Source: Candidatus Limnocylindrales bacterium (GTDB lineage: Bacteria > Chloroflexota > Limnocylindria > Limnocylindrales > CSP1-4). From it: a DNA stretch of 64,000 bases. The notes beneath the pieces are model-generated. The model was given only the letters and a program-made list of their open reading frames with translations. It did not search any database and was not told the origin of the DNA. The translations under genes and the position numbers were made by a program. Below are positions 43,734-61,638 of this stretch, piece by piece; position 1 is the stretch's first letter; the number at the start of each line of letters is the position of its first letter. The DNA lies in contig JBBQRX010000007.1 in assembly GCA_038214375.1 (NCBI GenBank), forward strand, positions 15,717-79,716. The letters are read 5' to 3'.

Positions 43734-44335
43734 CAGCCGACCGGCTCCGCCGCCGACGCGAGCCCGAGGGCGCGTTCGCGCGTCACCCGCCACTCCTCCT
43801 CGAGGATGCTCATCTGGATCTCGTCCCAGAAGCGCCCGCCCCGCCAGATCGCCTCGCGCGACCGCCCCTCCACTGTGAAGCCCACCCGTCGATAGGCGCG
43901 GATTGCTCGCTCGTTGTATTCGAAGACCGCGAGCGAGACGCGGTGCAGCCCGAGGACCCCGAAGGCGTGCTCGAGCATGAGCGCGGTCGCCTCCGAGCCG
44001 TAGCCGTGGCCCCAGCAATCCGGCTCGCCGATCGTGATGTGGAAGAGCGCCGAGCCGTTGTCCCCGTCGAGCTGGCTGAACGCGCACGTGCCGATCAGCC
44101 GGTCCGACTCTGCGACGTGGATCGCGAGGGCCAGGGAGCCGACGCCGGCGACCCGCGCCTCGAAGAACCGCTCGACCTCGTCGGCCCGCATCGGGCCCTC
44201 CTGGTAGCGGGTCAGTCGGGCGACCTCGGGGTCCCCGTACCAGCGCTTGAAGGCCGGCAGGTTGCGCGCCGTGTGCTGGCGCAGCACGACCGTTCGGCCG
44301 GGAATCGCGGCGGGAAACCAGGTCCGGGCTCGCAT
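43733..44335 (-). CDS. GNAT family N-acetyltransferase (RimJ/RimL-like)
   Basis: GTCAF...L.LHRVSLAVFEYNERAIRAYRRVGF acetyl-CoA-binding motif pattern. Confidence 0.85.
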   Translation of the reverse strand: MRARTWFPAAIPGRTVVLRQHTARNLPAFKRWYGDPEVARLTRYQEGPMRADEVERFFEARVAGVGSLALAIHVAESDRLIGTCAFSQLDGDNGSALFHITIGEPDCWGHGYGSEATALMLEHAFGVLGLHRVSLAVFEYNERAIRAYRRVGFTVEGRSREAIWRGGRFWDEIQMSILEEEWRVTRERALGLASAAEPVG

Positions 44336-44361
44336 GCCTGCGAGCGTATACCATCCCGCGC

Positions 44362-46173
44362 ATGCGCCGATGGAGCCAGGTGGCCGCGCGGATTGGCGCG
44401 ACGACGCGGACGTCCGAGAAAACCCGCCTCCTGGCCGACTACCTGCGGGAGGTCGAGCCCGACTCGCTGCGCGACGCGGTGATCTTCTTCACCGGGCGCG
44501 CGTTCCCTGAGTCCGACGCCCGCGTTGCCGGCCTGGGCTGGGCGACGATCGCCGACGCCGTCGCGCGGGTCGCGGGCGTGGATCGTGCGGCGCTCGGGGC
44601 CGCCTACGACCGGGATTCCGACCTGGGCCTCGCCGTCGGCGACGTCCTCGCGGCGCACGACCACGCCGGGAACGAGCCCGCGCCGCACGGGCCCGCGGCG
44701 CACGAGCCCGCGGCGCACGAGCCCGCGGGTACGTCCCGGCTCCCTCCGGCGGGCATCGCCGACACGGCCGGGCCTGCCGCCTCGCCGAGCATCCCGGAGG
44801 TCGCGGCCGCGTTCGCGGCCATCGTGGAGGCGCCGGGCCCGGCCGCGAAGTCGGCCGCGTTCGAGGCACTCCTCCGACGCTGCGATTCGCTGAGTGCCAC
44901 ATACGTGGTCAAGATTCTCGCCGGCGAGCTCCGAATCGGGCTCCGCGACGGGCTCCTCCAGGCGGCGATCGCGCAGGCATTCGGGCGGCCGGCGTCGGCC
45001 GTCGCCACCGCGGCGATGCTGACCGGCGACATCGGGGAGACCGCCGTGCTGGCCCGGGAGGACCGTCTCGGCTCGACACGGCTGCGCATGTTCCGGCCGG
45101 TCCGCTTCATGCTCGCATCGCCGGCGGAGGACGCGGCGGAGATCATGACCCGCCTCGGGCCGGTGGTCTGGACCGAGGACAAGTACGACGGGATCCGGGT
45201 CCAGCTGCACCGGCGCGGCCCGGACGCCCGGCTCTACAGCAGGGACCTCAACGACATGAGCGGGCAGTTCCCGGAGGTGGTCGCGTCGGCCGCCCGACTC
45301 GACTGGGATGGGGTCCTCGACGGCGAGCTCCTCGCGTACCGGGACGGCGTGGTCATGCCGTTCCTCGCGCTCCAACGGCGTCTCGGCCGCAAGGAGCCGT
45401 CCGCCCAGCTGCGGGACGAGGTCCCCGTCGCGTATGTCGCCTTCGACGCGCTGGCGCTGGGTCCCCGTGGCGGCGAGGTCGAACCGCTGATCGGGCGGCC
45501 CCTGGCCGAGCGACGGACGCGCCTCGAGGGGCTGGGCCTGGACGCGGCGGAGCCCGGTCACTTCGCGCTCTCGCGACTCGTCCAGGTCGGCTCGGCCGAC
45601 GAGCTCGAGGCGGTCTTCGCAGCCGCGCGCGAGCGTCGGAACGAGGGCCTGATGGTGAAGGACCCGACCAGCGTCTATGCGCCCGGCCGGCGCGGCTTCG
45701 GCTGGCTGAAGATGAAGAAGGCGCTCGCCACGCTCGATTGCGTCGTGGTGGGCGTCGAGGGCGGCCATGGCAAGCGGCACGGCGTTCTCTCGGACTACAC
45801 GTTCGCCGTCCGCGACGACGCGACAGGAGCGCTCGTCACGATCGGCAAGGCTTACAGCGGTCTCACGGACGCGGAGATCGCGGAACGCACCACCTGGTTC
45901 GAGGAGCACACCCTGGCTCATCACGGGCGCTACCGGGAGGTCGAGCCGAGGGTGGTCGTGGAGATTGCGTTCGACGTGATCATGCGGAGCGCCCGCCACC
46001 GGTCGGGCTTCGCGCTCCGGTTCCCGCGGATCGCCCGCCTGCGTCCGGACAAGTCGGCCGCCGACTGCGACACCCTCGCGACCGTCGAAGCGCTGTGGCG
46101 CGAGCTGCAGCACGGTGCCGAACACCTCGTGACACTCGGGGCGCGGCGGCCCGGCGCTCGCTCGGGGGCCTGA
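44362..46173 (+). CDS. ATP-dependent DNA ligase (N-terminal DNA-binding, adenylation and OB domains)
   Basis: KYDGIR adenylation motif I, EGLMVK motif, OB-domain; contains a His/Pro/Ala linker encoded by a 15-bp tandem repeat (44690-44740). Confidence 0.9.
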   Translation: MRRWSQVAARIGATTRTSEKTRLLADYLREVEPDSLRDAVIFFTGRAFPESDARVAGLGWATIADAVARVAGVDRAALGAAYDRDSDLGLAVGDVLAAHDHAGNEPAPHGPAAHEPAAHEPAGTSRLPPAGIADTAGPAASPSIPEVAAAFAAIVEAPGPAAKSAAFEALLRRCDSLSATYVVKILAGELRIGLRDGLLQAAIAQAFGRPASAVATAAMLTGDIGETAVLAREDRLGSTRLRMFRPVRFMLASPAEDAAEIMTRLGPVVWTEDKYDGIRVQLHRRGPDARLYSRDLNDMSGQFPEVVASAARLDWDGVLDGELLAYRDGVVMPFLALQRRLGRKEPSAQLRDEVPVAYVAFDALALGPRGGEVEPLIGRPLAERRTRLEGLGLDAAEPGHFALSRLVQVGSADELEAVFAAARERRNEGLMVKDPTSVYAPGRRGFGWLKMKKALATLDCVVVGVEGGHGKRHGVLSDYTFAVRDDATGALVTIGKAYSGLTDAEIAERTTWFEEHTLAHHGRYREVEPRVVVEIAFDVIMRSARHRSGFALRFPRIARLRPDKSAADCDTLATVEALWRELQHGAEHLVTLGARRPGARSGA

Positions 46174-46249
46174 GCGGCGGCTCCGGGCGTGGCGGGTCGC
46201 AGCCCGGGATGGGGTTCCGCGGCTCCGGCATTGTCCGTACACTTGCGGC

Positions 46250-46852
46250 ATGGCATTCGAGGCGGCGTTCCGGACGATTCCCATGACGCTCTACACCGAG
46301 CAGTTCGTGGTCCGCGGCACGGTCCAGACCCGCCAGCACCGGGTGACGGACATCCTCAATGAGGCGGACCAGCGATTCCTCGTCCTCGAGGAGGTCTCCC
46401 TCGAGGAGTTCGGCTCCAAGGAGCTCCCGACGCGCGCCGATTACGCGCAGGTGAACCTCGGTTCGATCCTCTTCGCGGTCTCGCTCCAGGCGGTCGAGCC
46501 GATCCGGGAGTTGCGCACAATGAAGGTCTCGGAACGTGCGCTCGTCTCCATCCCCCCGTTCCGCGTCATCGGGAACGTCCACCTCCTGTCGGAGCGAAGC
46601 CTGCGCGACTCCCTCGCGGAGCTGCAGGCCCCGTTCGTGCCGGTGACGGATGCCGTGTTCTGGTCGGATCGCCTCGGCGAGGCCCGCCAGAGCGCGGCGA
46701 TGGTCGCGGTCAACCAGGCGCGCGCGCAGATCCTGGCCCCCTATCGCGAGGTCAACCCCTGGGCTGACCTGGGTGGCGCCAAGCCAGGATTGCCGACCCG
46801 CCTGCCCGGCGTGCCCGACGATCACGGACCCCGTCAGCCGGGCTCGTTCTAG
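46250..46852 (+). CDS. hypothetical protein
   Basis: Coding-like composition; no recognisable motif. Confidence 0.55.
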   Translation: MAFEAAFRTIPMTLYTEQFVVRGTVQTRQHRVTDILNEADQRFLVLEEVSLEEFGSKELPTRADYAQVNLGSILFAVSLQAVEPIRELRTMKVSERALVSIPPFRVIGNVHLLSERSLRDSLAELQAPFVPVTDAVFWSDRLGEARQSAAMVAVNQARAQILAPYREVNPWADLGGAKPGLPTRLPGVPDDHGPRQPGSF

Positions 46853-46905
46853 CGGTCGATCTCCAGCGGTCGACTTCCAGCGGTCGATCTCTAGCGGTCG
46901 ACCGG
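46849..46905. repeat. 4 tandem copies of a 14 bp unit (CAGCGGTCGATCTC)
   Basis: TAGCGGTCGATCTC CAGCGGTCGACTTC CAGCGGTCGATCTC TAGCGGTCGACC at the convergent junction between 46250..46852 (+) and the rhodanese gene (-). Confidence 0.5.
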
Positions 46906-47736
46906 CAGGTCCAGGCGGCCGCCCCAGTCGGCCCAGCCTCCGTCGTAGACTGCGACGTCGTCGTGGCCCATGAGCGCGAGGGCGAAGGCGAGCTTGGCCG
47001 CAGAAACGCCCGACGCGTCGTAGCAGACCACGCGGCGCCCCGCGGCCACCCCGGCGCGATCGATCAGGGCGCGCAGCGTCCCGCCGTCGACAAAGCGTCC
47101 CGAGCCCGGCTCCGTGGTCAGCGCCACGGGCAGATTGACGGCGCCCGGCACGTGGCCCAGGCGGCGACCGTTGCCCTCGAACCCCCGGTACTCCGCGGGC
47201 GCGCGCGCGTCGAGGATGACGGCGCCGGCCGACCCGACCAGTGACCGCAGGTCGCTCGTCGTCAGTCGGCTCCGCAGCTGGGCCCGTGGCGTGAACGCGG
47301 CGGGATCCGGCTGGTGGGCGGCATGGCTGATCGGCCGGCCGGAGGCGATCCAGGCGCCGTAGCCCCCGTCGAGGATGCGAACCGACTCGAGGCCGTACAC
47401 GCGCAGGCTCCACCACGTCCGGGCCGCGTACAGGCTGGCCGTGTCGTCGTAGACCACGACGGTGCTGCCGTTGGCGATCCCGGCGCCGGCGACGGCCGCG
47501 GCGACCTGGTCGGGGGGAGCCAGGAGGAGCAGCGTGTCGTTGTCCTCGGGATCCACGAACGCGGCCCGCCAGTCGAGATACGTCGCGTTCGGGACGTGCC
47601 CAGCCGCGAACGCGAGCCGTCCAGTGCCGTCCGGCCGCCACCGGACGTCGAGAATCCGGACCTCGGGCCGGCCGAGATTCTCGGCCAGCCAGTCGGGAGA
47701 GGCGAGGAGCTCGGGTCGAGCATGGGCGCCGGGCAT
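46891..47736 (-). CDS. sulfurtransferase (tandem rhodanese domains, thiosulfate/3-mercaptopyruvate sulfurtransferase family)
   Basis: Two rhodanese domains; active-site loop VVCYDASGVSAA with catalytic Cys. Confidence 0.85.
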   Translation of the reverse strand: MPGAHARPELLASPDWLAENLGRPEVRILDVRWRPDGTGRLAFAAGHVPNATYLDWRAAFVDPEDNDTLLLLAPPDQVAAAVAGAGIANGSTVVVYDDTASLYAARTWWSLRVYGLESVRILDGGYGAWIASGRPISHAAHQPDPAAFTPRAQLRSRLTTSDLRSLVGSAGAVILDARAPAEYRGFEGNGRRLGHVPGAVNLPVALTTEPGSGRFVDGGTLRALIDRAGVAAGRRVVCYDASGVSAAKLAFALALMGHDDVAVYDGGWADWGGRLDLPVDR

Positions 47737-47758
47737 CGCCGCCTATCATACGGACCCG

Positions 47759-49024
47759 ATGACGCATCCGACCGAGCCCCGGGCCGGCTCCGACCGCGAC
47801 GGCGAGAAGCTCGCCGCGATCCGCGCCGCGCTGCCGGCCACGCGCGCCGGGATCTACCTCGACGCCGGCACGTTCGGGCCGATCCCCGCCGAGAGCGCTG
47901 CGGCGACACGCCAGGCCGAGGAGCGGGAGCTTGCGCTCGGCCGCGCCAGCCTCCACGCCCACGAGGAGCTCGCGGACCGGATGGCCGAGACGCGCGGGGC
48001 GCTTGCCGCGGTCCTGGGGACCGACATGGACCAGGTGGCCGTGACCCACTCCACGACCGAGGGGATCGGGCTGGCCGTGGGGATGCTGGGCTGGCGGCCG
48101 GGCGATCGTGCGGTCACCACGAGCGAGGAGCACGCGGGCCTGCTGGGGCCGTTGGCGGCCGTCGGCGACCGGCTCGGGGTTGAGGTGCGTGTCGCGGAGA
48201 TCGGCAACGGCGGCGACGACGAACGAACGGTCGATGCGATCGATCGGGAGCTGGCCGGCGGGCGCGTTCGGCTCGTCGCCCTCTCCCACGTCCTCTGGAC
48301 GACCGGGGCCGTCCTCCCCGTCGCCGAGATCGTGCGGCGAGCCCACGCCCACGGCGCGGTCGTGCTGATCGACGGCGCGCAGGCGTGCGGGGCGATCCCG
48401 CTGCGCGTCGACGACCTGGGTGCCGAGTTCTACGCGGTTCCCGGCCAGAAGTGGCTGCTCGGCCCCGCGGGCACGGGCGCGCTGGTCGTTCGTCGGGACG
48501 TCGCGGCCGCGGCGGTGCCGCCGGCGCGCGGTGCGTTCAGCGTCGCCACGTCGGATGGCGTCGGCCGCGACGACCTGTGGCCGGATGCGCGCCGCTTCGA
48601 GGTCGCCGGTTTCCACGGCCCATCGCTGGTCGGCCTCGCGCGCAGCGCCGGGTGGCTCGCGATGTATGTCGGCCTGCCGTGGGCGCAGGCGCGGGCGAGT
48701 CGACTCGCGCACGCCGCGGCGGTTCACCTCGAAGACACGCCCGGCGTGGCGCTGGTCACGCCCCCGGACCGGATGGCGACGCTCGTCACGTTCCGGCTTC
48801 CCGGCTGGCCCGCGGGCCGCGTCGCGGAGGAGCTCGGGCGGCGGGTGTTCGCGAGCGTCCGAACGATCCCCGCCCTCGACGCCGTCCGCCTCTCGGTGGG
48901 TTTCTTCACCACCGAGGAGGAGCTGGCGCGCGTCCTTGGTGCCGTTGCCGAGCTTGCCCGGCATACCCCTGAATCGCTGCCGCCGCGCCCCGCCATCGAG
49001 TTCCTCGGCCAGTCGTCCCCGTGA
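47759..49024 (+). CDS. aminotransferase class V (cysteine desulfurase-like, PLP-dependent)
   Basis: Fold-type I PLP enzyme; SHVLWTTGAVLPV...IDGAQACGAIPL...VPGQKWLLGPAGTGALV; divergent (22 bp) from the rhodanese gene. Confidence 0.85.
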   Translation: MTHPTEPRAGSDRDGEKLAAIRAALPATRAGIYLDAGTFGPIPAESAAATRQAEERELALGRASLHAHEELADRMAETRGALAAVLGTDMDQVAVTHSTTEGIGLAVGMLGWRPGDRAVTTSEEHAGLLGPLAAVGDRLGVEVRVAEIGNGGDDERTVDAIDRELAGGRVRLVALSHVLWTTGAVLPVAEIVRRAHAHGAVVLIDGAQACGAIPLRVDDLGAEFYAVPGQKWLLGPAGTGALVVRRDVAAAAVPPARGAFSVATSDGVGRDDLWPDARRFEVAGFHGPSLVGLARSAGWLAMYVGLPWAQARASRLAHAAAVHLEDTPGVALVTPPDRMATLVTFRLPGWPAGRVAEELGRRVFASVRTIPALDAVRLSVGFFTTEEELARVLGAVAELARHTPESLPPRPAIEFLGQSSP

Positions 49025-49416
49025 GCAGGCCGGATCCCCGACCGGTCCCGCAGCGATCCTGGCTCGAGATCCGCTGGCGCCAGGCTCGAAATGCTCCCCC
49101 GCCCGTCTTTCGCGCCGTCCTCAGCAGCGTCGCAGTCGCAGCCGTGCTGGGCGGGCTCTATCTCGCGTACGACCTGGCGCTGGCCGGCGGAGCCCGCCTG
49201 CCGGGCGGAGACCTGCGGACCCTTGCAGGCGTCCTTTTCGTGGTCGCCGTAACGGCCCTGGGGGCGTGGATCACGTATCTGGTCGTTCCGCAGCCGGGGA
49301 GGCCGGGCGTTCGAAGCCGGTGGAGCGCGGCGCTCGGGTTCTTCGCCGCCCTGCCGATCGCCTACCTCGCCCTCGTCGTCCTGTTCCAGGTGATCAAGCC
49401 GCTGGTCCGCGGGTAG
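49021..49416 (+). CDS. hypothetical membrane protein
   Basis: GTG overlaps upstream stop (GTGA); three predicted TM helices. Confidence 0.5.
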   Translation: MSRPDPRPVPQRSWLEIRWRQARNAPPPVFRAVLSSVAVAAVLGGLYLAYDLALAGGARLPGGDLRTLAGVLFVVAVTALGAWITYLVVPQPGRPGVRSRWSAALGFFAALPIAYLALVVLFQVIKPLVRG

Positions 49417-50038: not shown

Positions 50039-50440
50039 ATGAGCACGCCGACGATCCGGATCGGACAGGCCGCGGAGCTGCTCGGCGTGGGCGTGGAGAC
50101 GCTCCGGCGCTGGGAGCTCGAGGGCCGGCTCCTCACGACTCGCACCGAGGGGGGCCAGCGGCGGGTGCCGATCGCCGAGGTGACCCGGCTGCTGGCTGAG
50201 CGGCGCCGAACGACCCCCGACCGGCCGATCGTCGCCCAGTCGGCGCGCAATCGATTCGCGGGCATCGTGACCCGGATCGAGCGCGACGGCGTCGCCGCCG
50301 TGGTCGAGATCGTGGCCGGGCCGCACCGGCTCGTGAGCCTGATGACCGCCGAGGCGGTCGAGGAGCTCCGGCTCGCGGTCGGCGACGAGGCGATCGGCGT
50401 CGTGAAGGCCACGAACGTGATCGTCGAGGTGCCCCGCTGA
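50039..50440 (+). CDS. molybdenum-pterin-binding (TOBE) domain protein with N-terminal MerR/excisionase-type HTH (ModE-like regulator)
   Basis: IGQAAELLGVGVETLRRWELEGRL HTH; C-terminal TOBE (SARNRFAGIVTRIERDGVAAVVEIVAG); directly upstream of modAB. Confidence 0.8.
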   Translation: MSTPTIRIGQAAELLGVGVETLRRWELEGRLLTTRTEGGQRRVPIAEVTRLLAERRRTTPDRPIVAQSARNRFAGIVTRIERDGVAAVVEIVAGPHRLVSLMTAEAVEELRLAVGDEAIGVVKATNVIVEVPR

Positions 50441-50472: not shown

Positions 50473-51255
50473 GTGACAGGTGCGGGCGCCGTGTACGTGC
50501 TCGCCGCGCTCCTCGTTGCCGGCTGCGGGCATCCAACGGGCACGAAGACGCTCACCGTTCTCGCGGCAGCCTCGCTCCGCGACGCGTTCCGGGCCGCCGG
50601 GACGGCCTACACCGCGGCGCACCCGGACACGGCCGTGACATTCTCGTTCGACGCGTCCAGCGCGCTTCGTGCCCAGGTCGAGCAGGGAGCGCCCGCCGAC
50701 GTCTTTGCCAGCGCCGACACCACCAACCCCGAGCACCTGGTGCAGGCTGGCATGACGGTCGGCGCGGCCGTGCCGTTCGCGGGGAATCGTCTCGCGCTCA
50801 TCGTGCCGGCCGCGAACCCGGGCCGGATCACAACGCCCGCGGACCTGGCCCGCCCCGGCATCTCGCTGCTCACCGCGAGCCCGAGCGTGCCGATCGCTCG
50901 ATACACGCTGCAGGTCGTTGCGAACCTCGCCGGGGAGCCCGGAGCGCCGATCGGGTTCGCGGCCGCCGTCGAGCGGAACGTCGCCAGCCGCGAGGACAAC
51001 GCGGCCGCCGTGGTCGCGAAGGTCGGACTCGGCGAGGCAGATGCGGCGTTCGTGTACGCGACCGACGCCCGCGCCGCCGGGGCAGCGGTCCGCACGATCG
51101 CGTTCCCCGACCGCGACAACGTCACCGCGACATACGCCGCCGTGGTTGCCCGGCAGTCCCAGGATCCCGCCGCCGCGGCTGCATTCGTCGCGTGGCTGGC
51201 GGGGGCGGAAGGCCGGGCGATCCTGGGTCGTTTCGCGTTCGAGCCGCCGCCGTGA
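50473..51255 (+). CDS. modA: molybdate ABC transporter substrate-binding protein
   Basis: Lipoprotein signal (LLVAGCG); ModA-like (AASL..., SADTTNPEHL, VYATDA). Confidence 0.85.
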   Translation: MTGAGAVYVLAALLVAGCGHPTGTKTLTVLAAASLRDAFRAAGTAYTAAHPDTAVTFSFDASSALRAQVEQGAPADVFASADTTNPEHLVQAGMTVGAAVPFAGNRLALIVPAANPGRITTPADLARPGISLLTASPSVPIARYTLQVVANLAGEPGAPIGFAAAVERNVASREDNAAAVVAKVGLGEADAAFVYATDARAAGAAVRTIAFPDRDNVTATYAAVVARQSQDPAAAAAFVAWLAGAEGRAILGRFAFEPPP

Positions 51256-52088
51256 CGCTCTTTGAGGGGCTGCGGCAGCGCCGCGACCCGCTTCCGGGTG
51301 GCGCGCTCCCGAGCGTCGTGGCTGCCGGCTGGGTCCTGTTCCTCGGGCTCCCGATCGCCGCGCTGCTCCTCCGCGCAGCGGCCATCGGGCGCGTGGACGA
51401 CGCGTCGTCCGGCCGCGTGGTGCTCGATGCGCTCGTGCTGAGCCTGGTCACGACCGCCGCGAGCCTCGCGCTCGCCGTTGCCTTCGGGCTGCCCGTCGCG
51501 TGGCTGCTCGCGCGCCGGCCGCCCCGCGGCGCGGTGCTCCTCGAGACCCTGATCGACCTGCCGATCGTGCTGCCGCCTTCGGTCGCCGGCCTGGCGTTGC
51601 TGCTCGTGTTCGGGCGGCAGGGCGTCCTCGGCGGGCCGCTAGCGGCTGCCGGCCTGAGCGTGCCGTTCACCACCATGGCGGTGATCGTCGCCCAGACGTT
51701 CGTGGCAGCGCCGTTCTTCATCCGCTCCGCTCGCGCCGGCCTTCGCAGCGTTCACCGGGACCTGGAGGACGCCGCTCGGGTCGACGGCGCCGGGGAGATG
51801 GCCGTCGCGATGTCCGTGACGCTGCCGCTGGCGGCACCCGCGCTTGCGGCCGGGCTCGTGATGGCCTGGGCACGGGCGCTCGGAGAGTTCGGGGCGACGA
51901 TCATGTTCGCCGGCAACCTCGAGGGCCGGACCCAGACGTTGCCGCTCCTGGTCTACTCGGAGTTCCAGGCGAGCTCGGACGCGGCGGTCGTGGCGGCATC
52001 GATCCTGGTCGTGGCCGCCCTCGGCGTCCTCCTGGGCGTGCGTCTCGCACGGCGCGGCAGCGTCACGGATCTCGGCGCGGCGGGCTGA
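51252..52088 (+). CDS. modB: molybdate ABC transporter permease
   Basis: GTG overlaps modA stop; EAA-loop VDGAGEMAVAMSVTLPLAAPALAAGLVMAWARALGEFGATIMFAG. Confidence 0.9.
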   Translation: MTLFEGLRQRRDPLPGGALPSVVAAGWVLFLGLPIAALLLRAAAIGRVDDASSGRVVLDALVLSLVTTAASLALAVAFGLPVAWLLARRPPRGAVLLETLIDLPIVLPPSVAGLALLLVFGRQGVLGGPLAAAGLSVPFTTMAVIVAQTFVAAPFFIRSARAGLRSVHRDLEDAARVDGAGEMAVAMSVTLPLAAPALAAGLVMAWARALGEFGATIMFAGNLEGRTQTLPLLVYSEFQASSDAAVVAASILVVAALGVLLGVRLARRGSVTDLGAAG

Positions 52089-52143
52089 GGCGCGAATGCA
52101 TGGCCCATCCCGGCGAGGGCGGTGTACGCTCGTCCCGCCCGAT

Positions 52144-52219
52144 GGGGGAGTAGCTCAACGGTCAGAGCACCCGCCTTATACGCGGTTCGTTGGAGGTTCG
52201 AATCCTCCCTCCCCTACCA
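52144..52219 (+). tRNA. tRNA, anticodon UAU by manual fold (putative tRNA-Ile decoding AUA); CCA encoded
   Basis: Manual cloverleaf: acceptor GGGGGAG/CTCCCCT (G1-U72 wobble), D-arm GCTC-AACGGTCA-GAGC, anticodon arm CCCGC-CTTATAC-GCGGT (27-43 mismatch), V-loop TCGTT, T-arm GGAGG-TTCGAAT-CCTCC, discriminator A, CCA. Confidence 0.8.
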
Positions 52220-52297
52220 GCCGCCGCCGGTCTCGGCACCCGGTGGCCCGACGCGCGACTCCCGACGGGACGCGAAGACGCACGTCCCGAGCGGACG

Positions 52298-54664
52298 TCA
52301 GGAGAGCGAAGGGGCGGAGACCCGGCGCGGCCGTGGCCCCGGCGCCGCGCGGACGGTCGAAAAGCGACGCAGGCGGAGCGCATTCGAGACAACCGTCACG
52401 GATGACAGCGCCATCGATGCCGCCGCGAAGATCGGGTCGAGCAGGAGCCCGGTGAACGGGTACAGCACACCCATCGCGATCGGGATCAGCAGGACGTTGT
52501 AGGCGAACGCCCAGAACAGGTTCTGGCGGATGTTGCGCATCGTCGCCCGCGAGAGCGAGATCGCCGTGACGAGGCCGCGCAGGTCGCCCGACATGAGGGT
52601 GACGCCGGCCGACTCCATGGCGACGTCGGTTCCCGTGCCCATCGCGATCCCGACGTCGGCGGACGCCAGGGCCGGGGCGTCGTTGACGCCGTCGCCGACC
52701 ATTGCGACGACGGTACCCTCGGCCTGCAGCGCCTTCACGGCGGCGGCCTTGCCGTCGGGCCGGACGTCCGCGAGCACGCGGTCGATGCCAGCCGAGCGGG
52801 CAATCGCCTCGGCGGTCCTTCGGTTATCGCCGGTCAGCATCGTCACGACGATCCCGAGCCGCCGCAGCTCGGCCATCGCCTCGACGGACCCGGCCTTGAG
52901 CGTGTCGGCGATGGCGATGACGGCTGCTGCCCGCCCATCGATCGCGGCGAAGACCGGGGTCTTGCCGTCGGCCGCGAGCGCGTCCGCGCTCGCGACGAGC
53001 GCCGAGACGTCGATCCCTTCGGCCTCGAGGTATCCCGGGCGACCGACGACGACGCGGCGTCCGCCGACCATGGCCGCGACGCCGCCGCCCGCGGTGGCCA
53101 GGAAGCCGGTGGCCGCGGGCACGTCGAGGGCCCGGGTCGTGGTGGCCTCGCGCACGATGGCGTCGGCGAGGGGATGCTCGGACCCGCGCTCAGCGGCCGC
53201 CACGAAAGCAAGAAGCTCATTCTCGACCGGCGCGCCAGGTGCGCGGACCACATCGGTCACCCGCGGCTTCCCCTCGGTCAGCGTGCCCGTCTTGTCGAGG
53301 ACGATGGCCTTGACCGAGCCGAGGCGCTCGAGCGCCTCGGCGTTGCGGAACAGGATGCCGGCCTCGGCGCCCTTGCCCGTCCCGACCATGATCGAGGTCG
53401 GAGTGGCCAGGCCGAGCGCGCAGGGGCAGGCGATGATCAGGACCGCGACGGTGTTGAGCAGCGCGAGGTTGAACGCGGGCGCAGGGCCGAACGCGAACCA
53501 GGCAACGAACGTGAGCGCTGCAAGGCCGAGCACCGCGGGCACGAAGTAGCTCGTGACGAGATCCGCGAGACGCTGTATCGGTGCCCGGGAGCCCTGCGCC
53601 TCGGAGACGAGCCGGATGATCCGCGCGAGCACGGTGTCCGCGCCCACGCGCGTGGCGCGGAAGGTGAGGGTGCCCGTGGTGTTGAGGGTGGCGCCGACCA
53701 CGAGATCGTCGGCACGCTTGGCGACGGGCAGGCTCTCGCCCGTGATCATGCTCTCGTCCACGCCCGAGACGCCGTCGGTCACGACGCCGTCGACGGCGAT
53801 GGTCTCGCCCGGGCGAACCCGCACGATGTCGCCGACACGAACGTCGCTGATCGCGACGTCGAGCTCCGCGCCGTCCCTGAGGACGCGCGCCGTCCGGGGC
53901 GCGAGGCCGATCAGGCGCCGGATGGCGTCCGACGTGTGGCTGCGGGCGCGCGCTTCGAGGAACCGGCCGAGCAGGATCAGCGTGATGATCGCTGCCGCAG
54001 TGTCGAAGTAGAGCGGCAGGGCGGCGTCGTCCATGCCGAGCCCCGCAGCGCGGAAGAACGAAGGGACCAGGATCGTGGCCACGCTGTAGCCGTACGCGGC
54101 CGTCGTGCCCACGGCAATCAGCGTGTTCATGTCCGTCGCGCGGTGCCGGAGGGCCTTGATGGCGCCCGTGTAGAAGGGCCATCCCGCCCAGAACTGCACA
54201 GGCGTCGCGAAGGCGAGCTGGAAGAGCGGGTCCGACAGCAAGGCCGGCAGCCACGGCGCGACCGTCATCCGCGCGAGGCCGCCGAGCAGCGGAAGCGTCA
54301 GCACGGCCGCGATGAGGAGGCGGCGGCGCAGGGCGGCAACATGTCGGGCGGTTGCCTCGTCACGCTCCGTGCGCGCCTCTGCGGCCTCGGCGACGTCGAT
54401 CTCGTGGTCGGCCGATGCCGCCTGCTCCACCCGCGCGACGTAGCCCGCGGCATCGACCGCCGCGACGAGGTCCGCCACGGTCACCGACGCGGGGTCGTAC
54501 CGGATGGTGGCGGACTCAGACGCGAGGTTGACGTTCGCCTCGGCGACGCCCTCGACCTTGTTGAGGAAGCGCGTGATCCGGTTGACGCAGGAGGCACAGG
54601 TCATCCCCTCGACAGGGAACGAGACGACCTCGATGTGGGTGGCGGCGACGGTGGTCATGGTCAT
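52298..54664 (-). CDS. copA: copper-translocating P-type ATPase (P1B-1, CPC motif) with N-terminal HMA domain
   Basis: GMTCASC HMA, TGES, CPC ([13 protein letters not shown]), [17 protein letters not shown]. Confidence 0.9.
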
Positions 54665-54733
54665 CTCCGGGTGCTCGGCCCAAGGGCCGCGAGTCTGGAC
54701 GTGGGAACGACGACAGCGCGATCGGGCATGCGC

Positions 54734-56362
54734 TCAGCCGCCGGTTCCGGTCCTGCCGGTCGGTGCTGCGGGTCGGTCGACGACCGTGATGGAGCCGCCG
54801 TACATCCCCATCGCACACGAGTAGTTGATCACCCCGGCGTTCAACGGGGGCAGGTCGATGGTGTTGGCACCCTTGTGGAGTCGCCGCACCGTCATGCCGA
54901 GACCCGGCACCACCAGGCTCGCCGCGCACGAGGCGGTGCTGCTCGACTGGATCGTCCAGCGCGTTGGGACTCCGGCATAGATGGACACGTTCCCGGGCCT
55001 GTAGCCGCCCACGTCCTGGTACGTCGTCAGCGTCTGGATGCCGTCGGCGATGCTCCCGGACGGAGGGGCCGCCGCGGCGACCGGCGAGACACCGATCGGG
55101 AGGCTGAAGCCCGAGAGACGAAGGCCGGCCGACCCATTCACGATCGCGAAGCCGACCACCACGACGCCCACGAGGCGCATCAGCGTCGGCCGCCATGCGC
55201 TCGGGACCACCACCGGGAGCCCGGCGAGAGCCAGGAGGCCAGGGGCAGTGCCAAGCGCGAAGACGGCAAGGGTGGCGCCGGCGAGCCATGGCGAGCCGGT
55301 CGAGAGGGCGTAGATCTGGACGGCCTGGGTGAAGCCGCAAGGCAGGAAGAACGACGCCGCGCCGAGCCCGGCCGCGCGCGCATCCGAGTAGCTCCCGACC
55401 GCGCCATCCGTGAGGCCGAGGCGGCGTCCGAGTCCCATCGGCAGGGTCGGCGACCAGGTGGCGATCCGGGGCGACAGCCCGGTCAGCCGGGTCCCGAGGA
55501 CCGTCATCACGAGCGCCACGCCGATCATCAGCACGGCCGTGACCTGCGGCGGCATCGTGACGCTGGCCCCGAGGGCACCGAGCGCTGCCCCCAGCACGCC
55601 ATAGCCCGCGATCCGGCCGGCGATGAAGACGAGCGCGGGGCGCATCCTCGCGGCGATCGGCACGTCGCCGGCGCCGGACGCAACCCTGCCGCTCTCGAAC
55701 GCGGCGGACAGGGCGAGCACGAGCCCGCCCACGAGCGCGGCGCACGTGGAGACTCCCGCAGCAAGGCCCAGCAGCAGGGCGATGAGGATCCCTCCCTGGC
55801 TCACGTCGCCGACGCCCGAGGCAAGGTCCGCGAGGCCGGTCACCGACGCGAGCACCGCGAGCCCGCCAACGAGGACGATGCCTGCGATCGCGGTCATCCA
55901 GACGTCGGGGTCGGGCGTGATCCACGGCGTGCGTCCGATCTCGTAGCCGGCGGCACGGACGGCTTTCGTGACTGCCGCCGACGGGATCGGTGCCGAGCTC
56001 GTGATCTCAACACGTCCGTGGACCGCCGAGGCTCGCACCTGCTCGACGTTGGGGATCCTGCCGACGTGGCGCGCGATTCGGTTCTCGCACGACCGGCAGG
56101 TCATCCCCGCCACGTGGACGATGGTGGTCGTGATGACGCCGCCCGATGTCGGCCCCGTGATCGGCGTGTCCCCGTTGGCTGCGCTCCGATCCCGGGCCCG
56201 CTCTGCCAGCAGGCTGTCGACCTCGAGGCTGAAGAGCAGGTCGCGCTCCCTGGCACCGCTCGCGATCGGCTCGGGGGCAGGGGCGGAATGCGCAGGTGCC
56301 GGCGCCGGATGCGCAGGCCGTCGCTGGGCGTTCGCTGTGGTCCTGGGGTGGCTGCGGGACAT
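54734..56362 (-). CDS. three-domain membrane protein: cytoplasmic HMA domain, TauE/SafE-like polytopic permease region, C-terminal cupredoxin-like Cys/Met domain
   Basis: GMTCRSC HMA; about 8 TM helices (GVSTCAAL); C-terminal soluble domain with SCAASLVVPGLG and YSCAMGMYGG; ATG 56362 chosen (alternative GTG 56419). Confidence 0.7.
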   Translation of the reverse strand: MSRSHPRTTANAQRRPAHPAPAPAHSAPAPEPIASGARERDLLFSLEVDSLLAERARDRSAANGDTPITGPTSGGVITTTIVHVAGMTCRSCENRIARHVGRIPNVEQVRASAVHGRVEITSSAPIPSAAVTKAVRAAGYEIGRTPWITPDPDVWMTAIAGIVLVGGLAVLASVTGLADLASGVGDVSQGGILIALLLGLAAGVSTCAALVGGLVLALSAAFESGRVASGAGDVPIAARMRPALVFIAGRIAGYGVLGAALGALGASVTMPPQVTAVLMIGVALVMTVLGTRLTGLSPRIATWSPTLPMGLGRRLGLTDGAVGSYSDARAAGLGAASFFLPCGFTQAVQIYALSTGSPWLAGATLAVFALGTAPGLLALAGLPVVVPSAWRPTLMRLVGVVVVGFAIVNGSAGLRLSGFSLPIGVSPVAAAAPPSGSIADGIQTLTTYQDVGGYRPGNVSIYAGVPTRWTIQSSSTASCAASLVVPGLGMTVRRLHKGANTIDLPPLNAGVINYSCAMGMYGGSITVVDRPAAPTGRTGTGG

Positions 56363-56513
56363 CGGGACGCATGCTCCTTCGGAAAGCCGACTGACCGGAT
56401 CAGCGTGGAGGAGATGCACCGGCAGGCCAATGCAGCAGGGCGCAAGCCTTCCTCAAGTTCCGGTCAAGCGGCGCACCGGTGCCACCCGGGCCGGCGATCG
56501 TTGGGACCGCGGT

Positions 56514-58646
56514 TCACGACCGCTGGAACGGATCGCGGACGAGCGAGGGTTCTGCGCGCAGCACGAGCCGCCGGAGGAGCTGGGCGTTGGCGGCCACGAT
56601 GATCGTGGAGAGGCTCATCGCGATCGCGCCGACGGCCATCGGCAGGTCGATGCCCCAGGGCACGAGGACGCCAGCCGCAACCGGGATCGCCACCAGGTTG
56701 TAGGCCGTCGCCCAGACCAGGTTCTGGATCATCTTCGTGTAGGTCGCGCGGGACAGCTCGATGGCGCCGACCACGTCGCGCGGGTCGCTGCGGACCAGCA
56801 CGATCCCGGCCGATTCGACGGCCACGTCGGTCCCGGCGCCGATCGCGATCCCCACGTCGGCGGTCGCGAGGGCTGGGGCATCGTTCACGCCGTCACCGAC
56901 CATGGCGACTTTCCGCCCTCCCTCCTGGAAGCGGCGGACGGCGTCGGCCTTGTCCTGCGGCAGGACCTGCGCGGCAACCTCGTCGATCCCGAGCTGGCGG
57001 GCGACGGAGTCCGCGACCGCCTGGGCGTCGCCCGTGATCATCGCGACCTTGATGCCCATCGCATGGAGGCGCTCGATCGCCTCGGCCGACTCCGGCCGGA
57101 TCTCGTCCTCGATCGCGAGCGCACCGATGACCGCGCCGTCGGCCACCACGTGGAGCACCGTCCGGCCTTCGTGCGCCCATGCGTCGCTTGCCGGGTCCGC
57201 CTGGAGGCCGAGGTCGGCGAGCAGGCGCGGCCCGCCGACGGCGACCGATCGCCCCTCGACGGTCGCCCGCGCCCCGCGGCCGGCGAGGGCTTCGAAGGCG
57301 GTCGCGGCGGGGACCTCGACGGTGCGCTGCGCCGCTGCCCCGACGATGGCCCGGGCGAGGGGATGCTCGGAATCCGCCTCGACCGACGCCGCGAGGCGCA
57401 ACACGTCTGCTTCGTCCGTCCCGACCGCCGCGGAGACTGCCGTGAGCGCGGGACGCCCCATCGTGAGCGTCCCGGTCTTGTCGAAGATGACCACGTCGAG
57501 CTCGCGCGCCCGCTCGAGCGCGGTCCGGCTTTTCACGAGGAGGCCGTTCCGCGCGCCGAGCGAGGTCGAGATGGCGATCACGAGCGGGATCGCGAGGCCG
57601 AGGGCGTGTGGGCAGGCGATGACGAGGACCGTCGCCGTACGGACAAGCGCGCCCTCGGGGTCGCCGCGGAGCCACCAGAACGCGAGCGTCAGCCCGCCCG
57701 CAGCGAGGGCAACGTAGAAGAGAATCGCGGCGGCGCGATCGGCGAGCGCCTGCGCCCGCGAGGCGGATGCCTGCGCGGCGGCGACCATCCGCATGATCCC
57801 GGAGAGCGCGGTCGCTTCACCGACGGCCGAAACGCGCACCCGGAGGCTGCCGCCGGCCGCCACGGTGCCCGCGACCACGCGGTCGCCGAGCTCCTTGCCG
57901 ACGGCCTGCGATTCACCGGTGATCATCGATTCGTTGACGTCAGCAGTCCCTTCATCGACGATCCCGTCGGCGGGAATCCGGGCCCCCGGCCGGACGAGGA
58001 CCACGTCGCCGACCGCGAGATCGCCGAGGGCGACGGTCTCGGTGCCCTGCGGCGTGACACGCTCGGCGGTATCGGGCAGGAGCTCGGCGAGCGCCGCCAG
58101 GGCGCCGCGCGCCTGGGCGATCGAGCGCATCTCCAGCCAGTGGCCGAGCAGCATGATCGTGATGAGCGTGGCCAGCTCCCACCAGATCTCGACCTCGAAC
58201 AGTCCCAGCGTCCCGGACCAGCTGGTGCCGAACGCGACCACGATCGCGAGCGAGATGAGGGTCATCATCCCGGGCTGCCGGGCCCGGAGCTCGCCGGCGG
58301 CCCCGCGCAGGAAGACGAAGCCGCCGTAGAGGAAGACCACGGTCCCGAGCACGGCCGGGATCCAGTCGGAGCCGGGGAAGCGCGGCGCCGCGTACCCGAG
58401 CCACGCCTGCGGGTCGCGGCTCCAGACCAGGACCGGGATCGTCAGCGCGAGGCTCAGCCAGAACTTGTCGCGGAACATGGCGACCGAGTGACCGGCGTGC
58501 TTGTCGTGGGCCGCGGAATCCCCGCCGTGACCGCTCCCGTGGGCAGCGGTCTGCATCCCCTCCATCTCCACGTGGTCATGCGGGTCGCGACCTGTGCCCG
58601 CGGGCAGCCCGTGTTCGGGCGGCATCTCGTGGTCAGCGTGCATCGG
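56514..58646 (-). CDS. heavy-metal P-type ATPase, CopB-like (P1B-3, CPH motif) with His-rich N-terminal metal-binding tail
   Basis: N-terminus HADHEMPPEHG...HDHVEMEGM...HGSGHGGDSAAHDKHAGH; TGES, CPH (VIACPHALGLAIP), [13 protein letters not shown]. Confidence 0.9.
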   Translation of the reverse strand, partial: PMHADHEMPPEHGLPAGTGRDPHDHVEMEGMQTAAHGSGHGGDSAAHDKHAGHSVAMFRDKFWLSLALTIPVLVWSRDPQAWLGYAAPRFPGSDWIPAVLGTVVFLYGGFVFLRGAAGELRARQPGMMTLISLAIVVAFGTSWSGTLGLFEVEIWWELATLITIMLLGHWLEMRSIAQARGALAALAELLPDTAERVTPQGTETVALGDLAVGDVVLVRPGARIPADGIVDEGTADVNESMITGESQAVGKELGDRVVAGTVAAGGSLRVRVSAVGEATALSGIMRMVAAAQASASRAQALADRAAAILFYVALAAGGLTLAFWWLRGDPEGALVRTATVLVIACPHALGLAIPLVIAISTSLGARNGLLVKSRTALERARELDVVIFDKTGTLTMGRPALTAVSAAVGTDEADVLRLAASVEADSEHPLARAIVGAAAQRTVEVPAATAFEALAGRGARATVEGRSVAVGGPRLLADLGLQADPASDAWAHEGRTVLHVVADGAVIGALAIEDEIRPESAEAIERLHAMGIKVAMITGDAQAVADSVARQLGIDEVAAQVLPQDKADAVRRFQEGGRKVAMVGDGVNDAPALATADVGIAIGAGTDVAVESAGIVLVRSDPRDVVGAIELSRATYTKMIQNLVWATAYNLVAIPVAAGVLVPWGIDLPMAVGAIAMSLSTIIVAANAQLLRRLVLRAEPSLVRDPFQRS

Positions 58647-58736
58647 GTAGGTGACCCCCGCTGGGTGGGCGGATGACGACGGGCAGCTCACGATAGAACG
58701 TGGAACCCTGGCCCGCTCTCGGGACTCGTGCGTTCC

Positions 58737-59294
58737 CTACTGGACCACGATCGTCCCGCTCATGCCGGCTTCATAGTGACCGGGAGCGTGGCACGCGTAC
58801 GCGAAGGGACCCGTTCCCGTGAACGTGTACGTCAGGGACCTGATCTGCATCATGCCGAGATCCGCGATCTCCGGGGTCCCGGCCTTGTCGGCGGCCACAT
58901 CGGCCGCCGGTCCGACCATGAACTCGTGGACCACGGGGCCAATCGTGGTGATCTCGAAGGTGATCGTCTCGCCGGCCCCGACCGTCACGGCAGGGGGCAG
59001 GAAGCGAAGCTGCGGGGTGGCAACGATCCTCACGACTCGCGGCGTTGCCGGTGTTCCGGCCACGAAGCCGGGTTCGCCGGGCCCGGGCGCGGACGCCGTG
59101 CCATTCCACGCGCCGCCCATCATGCCGGGGGCGTTGCCGAACGCGCCCATCATCCCCGTCCCGAACCCAGCCGGCTGGGAAGAAACCCCGGTCCCGGCCG
59201 TGACGACCGAGCCGATGCCAAGAAGCGCGATCCCCGCCACTGCGAGGGCCGTGCCGAGCAGTCCGAGCCCTCGCCCGTTCACCGCGTGATTCAT
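58737..59294 (-). CDS. secreted cupredoxin (plastocyanin/azurin-like type-1 copper protein) with Gly/Met-rich linker
   Basis: Signal peptide; linker GFGTGMMGAFGNAPGMMGG; type-1 Cu ligand pattern H(EF)...YACHAPGHYEAGM. Confidence 0.8.
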   Translation of the reverse strand: MNHAVNGRGLGLLGTALAVAGIALLGIGSVVTAGTGVSSQPAGFGTGMMGAFGNAPGMMGGAWNGTASAPGPGEPGFVAGTPATPRVVRIVATPQLRFLPPAVTVGAGETITFEITTIGPVVHEFMVGPAADVAADKAGTPEIADLGMMQIRSLTYTFTGTGPFAYACHAPGHYEAGMSGTIVVQ

Positions 59295-59545
59295 CGCCCG
59301 GCCTTGAGCACGTTTGCTGCCTGCGTGTACTCGGCCTCTGTGATCTCACCGCGGGCGAAACGCGCGCGGAGGATGTCGAGAGGGTCCGTGCCGGCCGGCG
59401 ACGCCGCGATCCCGTGGTTGGCCGCTTTTGCACGCGACACCGCCCAGACCACGAGGACGACGAGGCCCACCATCAGGAGGATGCCGCCAAGCATCCAGAG
59501 CATTCCACCGAGCCCGAAGCCGAGGCCCGTGCCATATCCCATCAT
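59291..59545 (-). CDS. SHOCT domain-containing membrane protein
   Basis: N-terminal TM helix, C-terminal ...LDILRARFARGEITEAEYTQAANVL SHOCT-like motif; stop overlaps next gene. Confidence 0.7.
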   Translation of the reverse strand: MMGYGTGLGFGLGGMLWMLGGILLMVGLVVLVVWAVSRAKAANHGIAASPAGTDPLDILRARFARGEITEAEYTQAANVLKAGR

Positions 59546-59744
59546 CGTGGTTCACCGTTCTTGCGCCCCGGATCTTCCGGGGACCTGTCTCCATGATCGC
59601 GGGCGCGTCTCTGGTCAGCTGCTGGCGCGGATCAAGAAACCGTCAAGAGATCCAGGGTCCGGTCGGTCGCCCAGCTCACCTCTCGGACGTCATCCTGCGC
59701 GCATTCGCCTCCGGGTGCCGTCGAGGGAAGGCGCGCGAGGCTCA

Positions 59745-60022
59745 TCACCGCCCGAGCAATCGGGCGAGAAGGCCTCGCGGCATCTCCGTCGCCGGTTCCG
59801 ACTGGGCGGTGTCCGCGCGATAGCCGGCGGTTTCGACCGCCTGCGCCAGTGCCGCGTTCGACACCAGCGCGGGATCCCGGCGCACGGTCATGCACGCATC
59901 GCGCAGGCTCACCGCACGGACTCCACCCCGACGACCTTCTTCACGGACCTGGTGATCCGGTTCACGCAGGAGCTGCAGGTCATCCCCGACACGGGGACGC
60001 AGATCGTTTCGATCTCGCTCAC
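59745..60022 (-). pseudogene. copZ-like heavy-metal-associated (HMA) copper chaperone gene interrupted by a frameshift near 59909-59912
   Basis: Frame A: [37 protein letters not shown]-stop; frame B continues VSLRDACMTVRRDPALVSNAALAQAVETAGYRAD... Joined they give a complete HMA fold; a single missing base in the gtgcggtgagcc run would account for the frame change; GTG start overlaps ccdA-like stop (GTGA). Confidence 0.55.
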
Positions 60023-60876
60023 ATCGAGACCATCAGGCCGAAGCTCATGGCGATCACCGCCAGCGCGAGGCCGGCCTTGATCCAGGGCGAGTTCGCCCGG
60101 TTCCAGCGCGCGAGCTTGCCGAGCACGCGCCGGTTGCTGACCGACAGGAGGAGGAGCAGCAGCGGGACGATGAAGGCGATGTTGTAGAGGGCGAGAAGCG
60201 CGACGCCCGTGAGCCCGCCACCCGACGCCTGGAGGACCGTCACGATGGCGAGGTAGATCGCGCCCGAGCACGGCACGGTGCAGATCCCGACGAGCACCCC
60301 CGCGATCAGCATGCCGGCGAGGCCGCCGCGCTGCATCGCCTTGTGCATCCGGCCATGCGTTCCCGAGGGGGCCATCATCGAGGGCCCGACGCCGGGCAGG
60401 AACACATCCTTCAGCATCCACAGGGCCATGACGAGGGCCAGGATCGAGGCGCCCCGGGCGACAAGGTGGTCGCGGCCGAGCCAGCCAAGGACCGTGAAGA
60501 GGCCGAGGCCGATGATGAAGTACGTGACGAGCACCGCGCCCACGTACAGCGAGCCCGCGCCCAGGAGCCGCTGGCGCGCCTCGAGCGTCGGCGTTCCGCT
60601 GGACGTGACGGCGTTGACAAGCGTGAGCGTGTAGGTCGCGAACAGGACCAGCAGCGCGAACGCGCACGGATTGAAGCCGTCCGCGAACCCCGAGACCAGG
60701 ACGGTCGGGACGGTCAGGCCGCCGAACGCCGCCGTGTCGAAGGGGACCGCGAGCACGTATGCGAGGGCAGCGACACCGACCGTCACGATCAGGGTCGCGA
60801 GCGCGATGGCGGGCCGCGGCCAGCCCAGGAGGAGAGGCGACGCGGGAATGGGTCCCGGACTCGCCTCCTGTGTCAT
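60019..60876 (-). CDS. cytochrome c biogenesis CcdA-like / DsbD transmembrane-domain protein
   Basis: 6 TM; conserved Cys pair in TM helices (FNPCAFALL and CTVPCSGAIYL). Confidence 0.8.
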   Translation of the reverse strand: MTQEASPGPIPASPLLLGWPRPAIALATLIVTVGVAALAYVLAVPFDTAAFGGLTVPTVLVSGFADGFNPCAFALLVLFATYTLTLVNAVTSSGTPTLEARQRLLGAGSLYVGAVLVTYFIIGLGLFTVLGWLGRDHLVARGASILALVMALWMLKDVFLPGVGPSMMAPSGTHGRMHKAMQRGGLAGMLIAGVLVGICTVPCSGAIYLAIVTVLQASGGGLTGVALLALYNIAFIVPLLLLLLSVSNRRVLGKLARWNRANSPWIKAGLALAVIAMSFGLMVSM

Positions 60877-61618: not shown

Positions 61619-61638
61619 CAGGGTTCCTCCGTGTGTCG

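Follow-up and report, generated by a model that had tools for sequence, protein, structure and literature searches.

Decoding of the AUA codon in bacteria is taught as a lysidine-dependent process, with tRNAs that carry the anticodon UAU as rare exceptions. The modification is made on tRNA-Ile2(CAU) by TilS, an essential enzyme that has been proposed as an antibiotic target. Tabulated tRNA genes include TAT-anticodon tRNAs from 19 bacterial species (tRNADB-CE; PMC4013482), and the tRNAscan-SE 2.0 survey reports 17 bacterial genomes, from Bifidobacterium, Mycoplasma and Neorickettsia, in which a tRNA-Ile3(UAU) replaces Ile2 (PMC8450103). The same kind of tRNA is named tRNA-Ile2-UAU in PMC3575796 and tRNA-Ile3(UAU) in PMC8450103. 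UAU appears among the anticodons lost in prokaryotes in a review of 2021 (PMC8007984), and UAU tRNAs are still described as 'rare' in a preprint of 2026 (10.64898/2026.02.03.703510).

Two systems provide insight into how such a tRNA functions. In Mycoplasma mobile, U34 of tRNA-Ile(UAU) is unmodified, and the tRNA depends on an Arg residue of IleRS and on the organism's own ribosome (PMC3575796). In Bacillus subtilis, the G34U suppressor of a tilS deletion has an unmodified U34 that binds AUA strongly and AUG weakly, with misreading of approximately 1 in 1000 (PMC3919564). The two decoding systems can also occur together, as Lactobacillus casei, Cyanothece and Ferrimonas are reported to contain both a UAU tRNA and tilS with tRNA-Ile2(CAU) (Taniguchi et al., PMC3575796). 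A literature search that combined Limnocylindria or Chloroflexi with UAU-tRNA terms found nothing relevant.

Here we analyze a tRNA gene in a 64-kb stretch of DNA (64,000 nucleotides, referred to as the window) from a Candidatus Limnocylindrales bacterium. We interpret it, with a probability of roughly 0.8, as a chromosomal gene, inherited vertically, that encodes a minor tRNA-Ile with anticodon UAU in high-GC Limnocylindria. The tRNAs of M. mobile, Bifidobacterium and Neorickettsia are alike in having an encoded UAU, a canonical elongator structure, dedication to AUA, an A37 for t6A and A73, and both these and the Limnocylindria tRNA look derived from a minor Ile tRNA. The Limnocylindria tRNA is set apart from them by C38 in the anticodon loop and by its host, a free-living soil member of the Chloroflexota with 72% GC, whereas the known hosts have reduced or parasitic genomes or belong to Bifidobacterium. 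The B. subtilis suppressor, tRNA-Ile1(G34U), provides a parallel for an unmodified U34 that reads AUA on a normal ribosome (PMC3919564), but it is a laboratory mutation of the major tRNA-Ile1, whereas the gene described here is natural, apparently of Ile2 descent and long fixed.

Results and Discussion

Structure of the tRNA gene

The only tRNA that ARAGORN identifies in the 64 kb lies at 52144-52219 on the forward strand and has the anticodon tat. The gene comprises 76 nt with an encoded CCA, matches RF00005 over its full length (67.7 bits, E = 1.3e-12; Rfam gathering score 29), and has the canonical cloverleaf as its minimum-free-energy fold (-30.1 kcal/mol). The genomically encoded anticodon TAT occupies 52177-52179 (U34, A35 and U36) within the loop CUUAUAC, which reads C32 (52175), U33, U34, A35, U36, A37 and C38. 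Among its pairs are a G1-U72 wobble, U12-A23, A15-U48 and C29-G41, the discriminator is A73, and positions 27 and 43 form a C·U mismatch. The initial annotation had proposed the 76-nt length, the encoded CCA, this loop and this anticodon from a manual cloverleaf, and ARAGORN, Rfam and the sequence itself agree with it on each point. It had also noted the C-U mismatch, which is present, as a reason for checking the fold; the cloverleaf is the minimum-energy structure with the mismatch in place.

Distribution of the family and the fixed anticodon

The family was sought in one genome per GTDB species with the pattern GGGGGAGTAGCTCANCGGTNAGAGCANNNNNCTNATAC, in which position 34 was free. Positions 1-26, 32-33 and 35-38 were fixed in this pattern, so invariance at those positions among its matches is uninformative; the free positions were 34, the stems, the T loop and the 3' acceptor strand. 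At least 119 loci matched, with T34 in all 119 listed. Almost all of the genome matches come from MAGs named as Chloroflexota, 'Chloroflexia' or Limnocylindrales, including Chloroflexi bacterium CSP1-4. Together with the source names of the ModB and CopA homologues (below), this places the host among high-GC Limnocylindria and not among actinobacteria. When 121 loci were submitted to ARAGORN, 117 were called tRNA-Ile(tat) and the other four contained only the 5' half of the gene. At least 115 species-level genomes of a single class, the Limnocylindria, thus carry a UAU tRNA gene, compared with the 17-19 genomes of the 2014-2021 surveys. Complete or nearly complete genomes with the gene include OY970306.1 (3.68 Mb), CAVTPA010000001.1 (3.56 Mb) and CAWEIJ010000002.1 (2.96 Mb). 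The reading of the gene by the initial annotation as an AUA-decoding tRNA-Ile is supported. Its claim that UAU isoacceptors are uncommon holds for bacteria at large (PMC3575796, PMC4013482, PMC8450103) but not within the gene's own lineage.

Metagenomes extend this set to more than 230 family members when the genome and metagenome scans, both with position 34 free, are taken together. A C34/C38 version of the family tRNA had no match in 241 million JGI metagenome records. A metagenome scan that allowed either pyrimidine at position 34 and any base at position 38 gave, among the 120 matches listed, 117 with T34 and three with C34. These three have A38 and lie on contigs of 30%, 48% and 57% GC, features that assign them to other organisms, and all family members in high-GC DNA of the Limnocylindria type have T34. 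The window has C38, whereas T38 (loop CTTATAT) occurs in 21 of the 120 listed metagenome members (loci L268-L387); such variants were invisible to the genome scan because its pattern fixed C38.

The family may also reach past the high-GC clade sampled, since two viral or proviral contigs of GC 0.44-0.48 (L253 at 2762-2837 and L261 at 2754-2829) encode a tRNA-Ile(tat) with a nearly identical body, AGGGGAGTAGCTCAGTGGTTAGAGCA...CTTATAC...CTCCCCTACCA. In two other loci, within a few kb of the UAU tRNA, ARAGORN reports 93-nt tRNAs on the reverse strand, called 'tRNA-Cys(gca)' and 'tRNA-Arg(ccg)' (L190 at 3267-3359 and L223 at 4130-4222). Their length is odd for these isotypes, and either false calls or inserted sequence within the tRNAs might account for them.

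Selection on the tRNA

Covariation was evaluated on 37 of the 47 distinct sequences, after exclusion of three whose length is atypical and of seven 76-nt variants that were singletons. In these 37 sequences, 98.7% of the cloverleaf stem cells are paired, and double-sided changes are found at all five anticodon-stem pairs and at four of the five T-stem pairs. The covariation score of 0.351 compares with 0.094 for shuffled controls, of which none in 500 reached it, and with at most 0.076 for slid controls. For the tertiary (Levitt) pair 15-48, 33 distinct sequences have G-C and 11 have A-U, and no other combination occurs. The discriminator A73 is invariant in the family, and CCA is encoded in 116 of 118 members.

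Of the 11 distinct sequences with A15-U48, 10 have the pyrimidine-pyrimidine mismatch at 27-43, including that of the window, and G1-U72 is likewise a shared subfamily trait. The C27·U43 mismatch is a common trait of the A15-U48 subfamily and no defect. The compensatory changes in nine stem pairs, the covariation of 15-48, the constant T34, the synteny and the upstream promoter motif (both described below) argue for a functional gene under strong purifying selection, as opposed to a pseudogene or a one-off mutation.

Isotype, origin and use of the AUA codon

Since ARAGORN takes the isotype from nothing but the anticodon, independent evidence was sought in the body of the tRNA. The majority sequence of the family matches a CAT-anticodon tRNA-Ile in almost every one of the 5,426 E. 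coli genomes, and this match is the lysidine tRNA-Ile2, with approximately 80% identity over positions 8-63. The window variant itself gave only prophage tRNA-Arg and T-arm matches in E. coli because its anticodon stem has changed, and the majority sequence was used in its place. The family majority and E. coli tRNA-Ile2 (ileX/ileY) have an identical D arm, the same AGAGCAGGCG junction and the same codon, AUA. They differ in the acceptor stem, where the UAU family has G4-C69 and G5-C68 and E. coli has C-G pairs, and at position 38, which is C here and A in E. coli.

Because its nearest E. coli relative is tRNA-Ile2(CAT), the family looks like a descendant of the lysidine tRNA through a change of C34 to U, and an origin from the tRNA-Ile2(CAU) gene by this single change would be the simplest history. 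With TAT in place of CAT in the window and throughout the family, the tRNA is distinct from the lysidine-type substrate of TilS, and with U at position 34 lysidine is neither possible nor needed. A CAT tRNA with the loop CUCAUAA and, along its full length, 80-85% identity to the UAU family is present on a metagenome contig of GC 0.57 (L355, 5949-6024, forward strand). Its best E. coli match is tRNA-Ile2, not tRNA-Met, and it is likely a related tRNA of the lysidine type that belongs to a different lineage.

Isoleucine identity in E. coli involves A73, A35-U36, A37, U12-A23 and C29-G41, and also C4-G69 and A38. The window tRNA retains A73, U12-A23, A35, U36, A37 and C29-G41, while G4-C69 and C38 replace C4-G69 and A38; C29-G41 is not retained in every subfamily.

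The AUA codon is rare in this lineage, at 0.2-0.5 per 1000 codons. The likely genes of the window contain three AUA codons in 15,855, compared with 658 ATC and 23 ATT, and orthologues within the lineage contain 41 in 88,583 aligned codons. The orthologue AUA codons align with isoleucine in 17 cases, leucine in 7, valine in 5, alanine in 5 and methionine in 1, a profile similar to that of ATT. Codon 363 of the window's CopA gene is AUA within the motif SRAPIQRLA, at a position occupied by isoleucine in 120 of the 121 listed aligned sequences, its own included. These isoleucine-like alignments identify AUA as a rare but real isoleucine codon and the genetic code as standard at AUA, and they indicate, indirectly, that the host decodes AUA as isoleucine.

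The same evidence bears on the proposal that the gene does not specify an isoleucine tRNA at all, and that it is a tRNA-Ile2 or tRNA-Met(CAU) altered by a sequencing error or a disabling mutation, or that AUA has been reassigned. TAT is one base from CAT, and the gene combines a stem mismatch with a G1-U72 wobble. Both irregularities are common to the subfamily, however, and T34 is present in every family member from high-GC DNA, with stems that covary. A reassigned codon is difficult to reconcile with AUA aligning to isoleucine, leucine and valine, with methionine only once in 41, and with the invariant isoleucine of CopA. We regard this proposal as very improbable.

Decoding of AUA

In the mechanism that we propose, the UAU tRNA would be transcribed from its own -10-like promoter and, with CCA encoded, would require no CCA addition. 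Charging by IleRS would be expected from A73, A35, U36 and the tRNA-Ile2-like body. The modification t6A37 is general in ANN-reading tRNAs, and published work suggests that A37 would carry it here. AUA would then be read by U34-A pairing, with U34 probably unmodified or restricted to A, and AUG would be read poorly. The M. mobile tRNA and the B. subtilis suppressor tRNA provide precedents for such poor reading of AUG.

Two versions of this interpretation differ only in how AUA decoding is shared. In the first, the class Limnocylindria, which comprises abundant free-living, high-GC Chloroflexota of soil and fresh water, converted tRNA-Ile2 from CAU to UAU and lost TilS, leaving the U34 tRNA alone to read AUA. 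We hold this tentatively, at a little under even odds. Neither tilS nor tRNA-Ile2(CAU) is present within the 64-kb window. No CAU paralogue with the body of the UAU family was found in high-GC DNA in the genome and metagenome scans, and no SGGxDS PP-loop protein was found in the DNA neighboring the tRNA in Limnocylindria, a scope that provides no information on the remaining genome.

In the second version, the lineage keeps tilS and the lysidine tRNA-Ile2(CAU), and the UAU tRNA is a redundant supplement. Bacteria with both systems are on record (Taniguchi et al., PMC3575796), so this arrangement has precedent. Set against it are the tRNA-Ile2-type body of the UAU tRNA, as would result from conversion of the Ile2 gene itself, and the lack of a CAU paralogue with this body in the high-GC DNA scanned. 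Strict conservation in more than 115 species despite the rarity of the codon would also fit an essential, non-redundant role better. Redundancy is a real possibility, which we consider on the whole somewhat doubtful.

If the class did convert its tRNA-Ile2 and lose TilS, no larger bacterial lineage independent of TilS would be known, and none had previously been known beyond reduced genomes and Bifidobacterium. Such a lineage would need its own form of IleRS adaptation to avoid reading AUG as isoleucine, in which the anticodon loop (C32/C38) or the ribosome may also take part.

Upstream -10-like motif and conserved gene block

A -10-like element, GGTGTACGCT, lies at 52121-52130 on the forward strand (TACGCT at 52125-52130), with 13 nt between it and the mature tRNA 5' end. 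Most of the 116 distinct upstream sequences have a GGTGTAC/GNNT motif 10-35 nt before the tRNA, in a flank that is otherwise unalignable. As judged from this conservation, the element is probably a -10-type promoter belonging to the tRNA itself. Promoter and terminator scans around the tRNA, which used an E. coli-type consensus, returned nothing.

Further upstream, at 43733-49416, the window contains a block of genes for a GNAT protein, an ATP-dependent DNA ligase, a DUF6812 protein, a rhodanese, a class-V aminotransferase and a 131-aa ORF. BLASTN shows this block to be colinear with more than 20 Limnocylindria loci, each of which ends in the tRNA. The conserved core block ends at the tRNA, past which the DNA on the 3' side differs from one species to another.

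Between the block and the tRNA lies a molybdate uptake operon on the forward strand, consisting of a MerR/TOBE regulator (50039-50440), modA (50473-51255) and modB (51252-52088), without modC. Two relatives located through ModB, with 88% and 74% identity, have the mod operon followed by tRNA-Ile(tat), and the source names of the ModB and CopA homologues are from Chloroflexota or Ca. Limnocylindrales MAGs. The gene order in L121 and L122 is rhodanese, class-V aminotransferase, MerR/TOBE regulator, modA, modB and tRNA, again without modC. The initial annotation had noted the missing modC where it described the site as the classic position for an integrated element. As modC is also missing in L121 and L122, which do not have the copper block described below, its absence is no insertion scar.

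The mod operon was without modC wherever it was seen (the window, L121, L122, L188 and L198), and in L198 it is inverted and beside an integrase. Its distribution is patchy, and in many relatives, such as L151, L172 and L158, the tRNA lies 0.6-0.9 kb past the aminotransferase block with no mod genes.

The copper module downstream

A 78-bp spacer (52220-52297), with a 7-bp GC-rich hairpin at 52266-52289, separates the 3' end of the tRNA from the stop codon of copA. From 52298 to 64000, the reverse strand encodes a copper-resistance module of approximately 12 kb that runs off the end of the window. Pfam matches and ORF translations identify, in order, a CopA-type ATPase with HMA (52298-54664), an HMA-DsbD_2 protein (54734-56419), a second, His-rich P-type ATPase (56514-58691), a cupredoxin (58737-59294), an 84-aa SHOCT-like ORF (59291-59545), an HMA fragment (~59909-60020), DsbD_TM (60019-60876), Cupredoxin_1 (60873-61496), ChrB_C (61998-62441), a histidine kinase (62489-63577) and a response regulator (63577 onward). 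The HMA fragment contains GMTCxxC, reaches a stop codon after ~33 residues and is in a different frame from the upstream DsbD_TM gene. An intact HMA gene of 101-105 aa occupies the equivalent place in L243 and L244, and the fragment may represent a frameshift or a pseudogene.

The region 52296-64000 is colinear with modules in three contigs, L243, L244 and L245, at 70-88% nucleotide identity, with no tRNA within 10 kb there. By BLAST, homology to these modules ends at 52296/52297, at the copA stop codon, with no att-like sequence. In L243, a JGI contig, the module (4293-12381) has as its neighbors an FtsK/SpoIIIE-like gene and over 15 short ORFs without a family match, a gene landscape that resembles a plasmid, ICE or prophage. 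Relative to L243, the window module has the additional His-rich P-type ATPase and ChrB_C genes. Another copper module of the three contigs lies near icd. L244, which shares an icd homologue as well as the copper module with the window, also carries a Sua5-family gene.

At the tRNA itself, the copper block is an exception among relatives. The two nearest 3' neighbors of the tRNA in 91 loci fall into 87 protein clusters; L121 and L122 have an NlpC/P60 gene and a gene with a type-I PMI domain in place of the copper block, and only L223, with a similar ATPase ~4 kb 3' of the tRNA, departs from this pattern among the relatives examined. As the block is missing at this site in most relatives and colinear modules occur in other contexts, the copper genes form a separate accessory block. 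CopA has 82-94% identity to more than 120 clusters, while ModB falls to 74% after five matches, a contrast that fits module exchange within the lineage.

Relation of the copper block to the tRNA

The initial annotation placed the tRNA at the boundary of a metal-resistance island, the position of an integrated element. Its accessory part stands, given the comparison with relatives above. Signs of integration, by contrast, are missing from the window. Pfam applied to large ORFs, together with ORF translations, detected no recombinase in 52298-64000, no integrase or transposase was seen in 52220-64000, and an HMM built from three lineage integrases had no match in the window. A search of the 64 kb for the last 25 nt of the tRNA, with up to three mismatches, recovered only the tRNA itself, the far border of the block lying beyond 64000, and repeats within 51500-64000 are restricted to paralogous ATPase and HMA segments. 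GC is 0.70-0.72 in the copper block and 0.69-0.75 elsewhere in the window, with no step at the tRNA, and codon use in the block is similar to that of the remaining window, so that its composition is not atypical.

Site-specific integration of the block into the tRNA gene as a genomic island does agree with several observations from the lineage. The variable accessory block directly 3' of a tRNA is a feature of tRNA-linked islands, and the same module occurs elsewhere in other genomes, once beside the FtsK/SpoIIIE gene and orphan ORFs. Tyrosine integrases adjoin this tRNA in other species: phmmer with the L155 ORF identifies tyrosine-recombinase ORFs 85 nt downstream of the intact tRNA in L220 (3429-4715, forward strand) and just upstream of it in L198 (5067-6017, reverse strand), and the L155 ORF itself (526-1155, forward strand; Pfam Phage_integrase) lies 1.5 kb from a half copy of the tRNA. 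In addition, a viral contig of GC 0.71 (L246, IMGVR_UViG_3300037458_001599) carries at 812-836 on the forward strand the 3' part of a UAU tRNA, GGCTTATATCC...GGTTCGAATCCAGGCTCCCCTACCA, without the 5' half, and this fragment is a possible attP from a phage with this tRNA family as its integration target. Use of the tRNA as an attachment site is probable for the lineage, though not visible in the window. In the window, the lack of an integrase, a direct repeat and a compositional signature departs from known tRNA-linked islands, and homology that ends at the copA stop codon without an att-like sequence also speaks against integration. We consider it unlikely that the copper block arrived in this manner.

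Six contigs (L155, L194, L207, L219, L297 and L350) contain only the 5' half of the tRNA, positions 1-38, ending after CTTATAC; examples are L155 2673-2710 (reverse strand), L207 5177-5214 (forward strand) and L219 2520-2557 (reverse strand). Five of the six continue into a conserved tail of ~70 nt, GTCTTCGGTCCGCTACGGCGTGCTCACGTGCGTGGAC...GTTAGCTGCTCA, beyond which the DNA is unrelated. In reverse complement, the end of this tail corresponds to TGAGCAGCTAAC, which is present just upstream of the tRNA in one subclade. The half copies gave no Rfam match, and no 3' half lies close to them. CAVYIV010000023.1 contains a 290-bp direct repeat of 85.5% identity, which ends in the half copy (L219) at one site and in an intact tRNA (L206) at the other; the ~5.4 kb that separate the two carry GGDEF genes but no integrase. 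The half copies look like the result of a duplication or insertion in which the 5' side of the tRNA is replaced, in mirror image to 3' att sites of the classical kind. For four interrupted copies, an intron of group I or another type was considered and dropped, as there was no Rfam match and no 3' half within the loci.

A different role for mobile DNA would be that an element or phage brought the tRNA as an accessory gene for AUA codons in foreign, AT-rich genes. Anticodon-UAU tRNAs are very common in viral contigs among the matches listed for a generic pattern, but this pattern provides no information on the present family, for which a family-specific pattern was used; the family 5' pattern had no match in viral contigs. 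The tRNA stays with the conserved core block in species without the copper module, its promoter motif is lineage-wide, and the copper genes are as poor in AUA (1 in 3,221 codons) as the core genes (2 in 12,634). This is the least probable of the explanations considered here, and vertical inheritance of a chromosomal gene remains our interpretation.

Conclusions

The tRNA-Ile(TAT) genes of Limnocylindria MAGs are genuine and should not be flagged as pseudogenes or contamination. What is new is a class-wide case of a known but rare kind of tRNA, with UAU fixed in more than 100 species of one class. The UAU solution to AUA decoding is thereby placed in a class that is abundant in the environment and has genomes of ordinary size, such as a complete chromosome of 3.68 Mb. 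These species provide a natural and diverse data set for asking how a free-living bacterium keeps a U34 tRNA-Ile from reading AUG, and whether TilS is dispensable in a major lineage.
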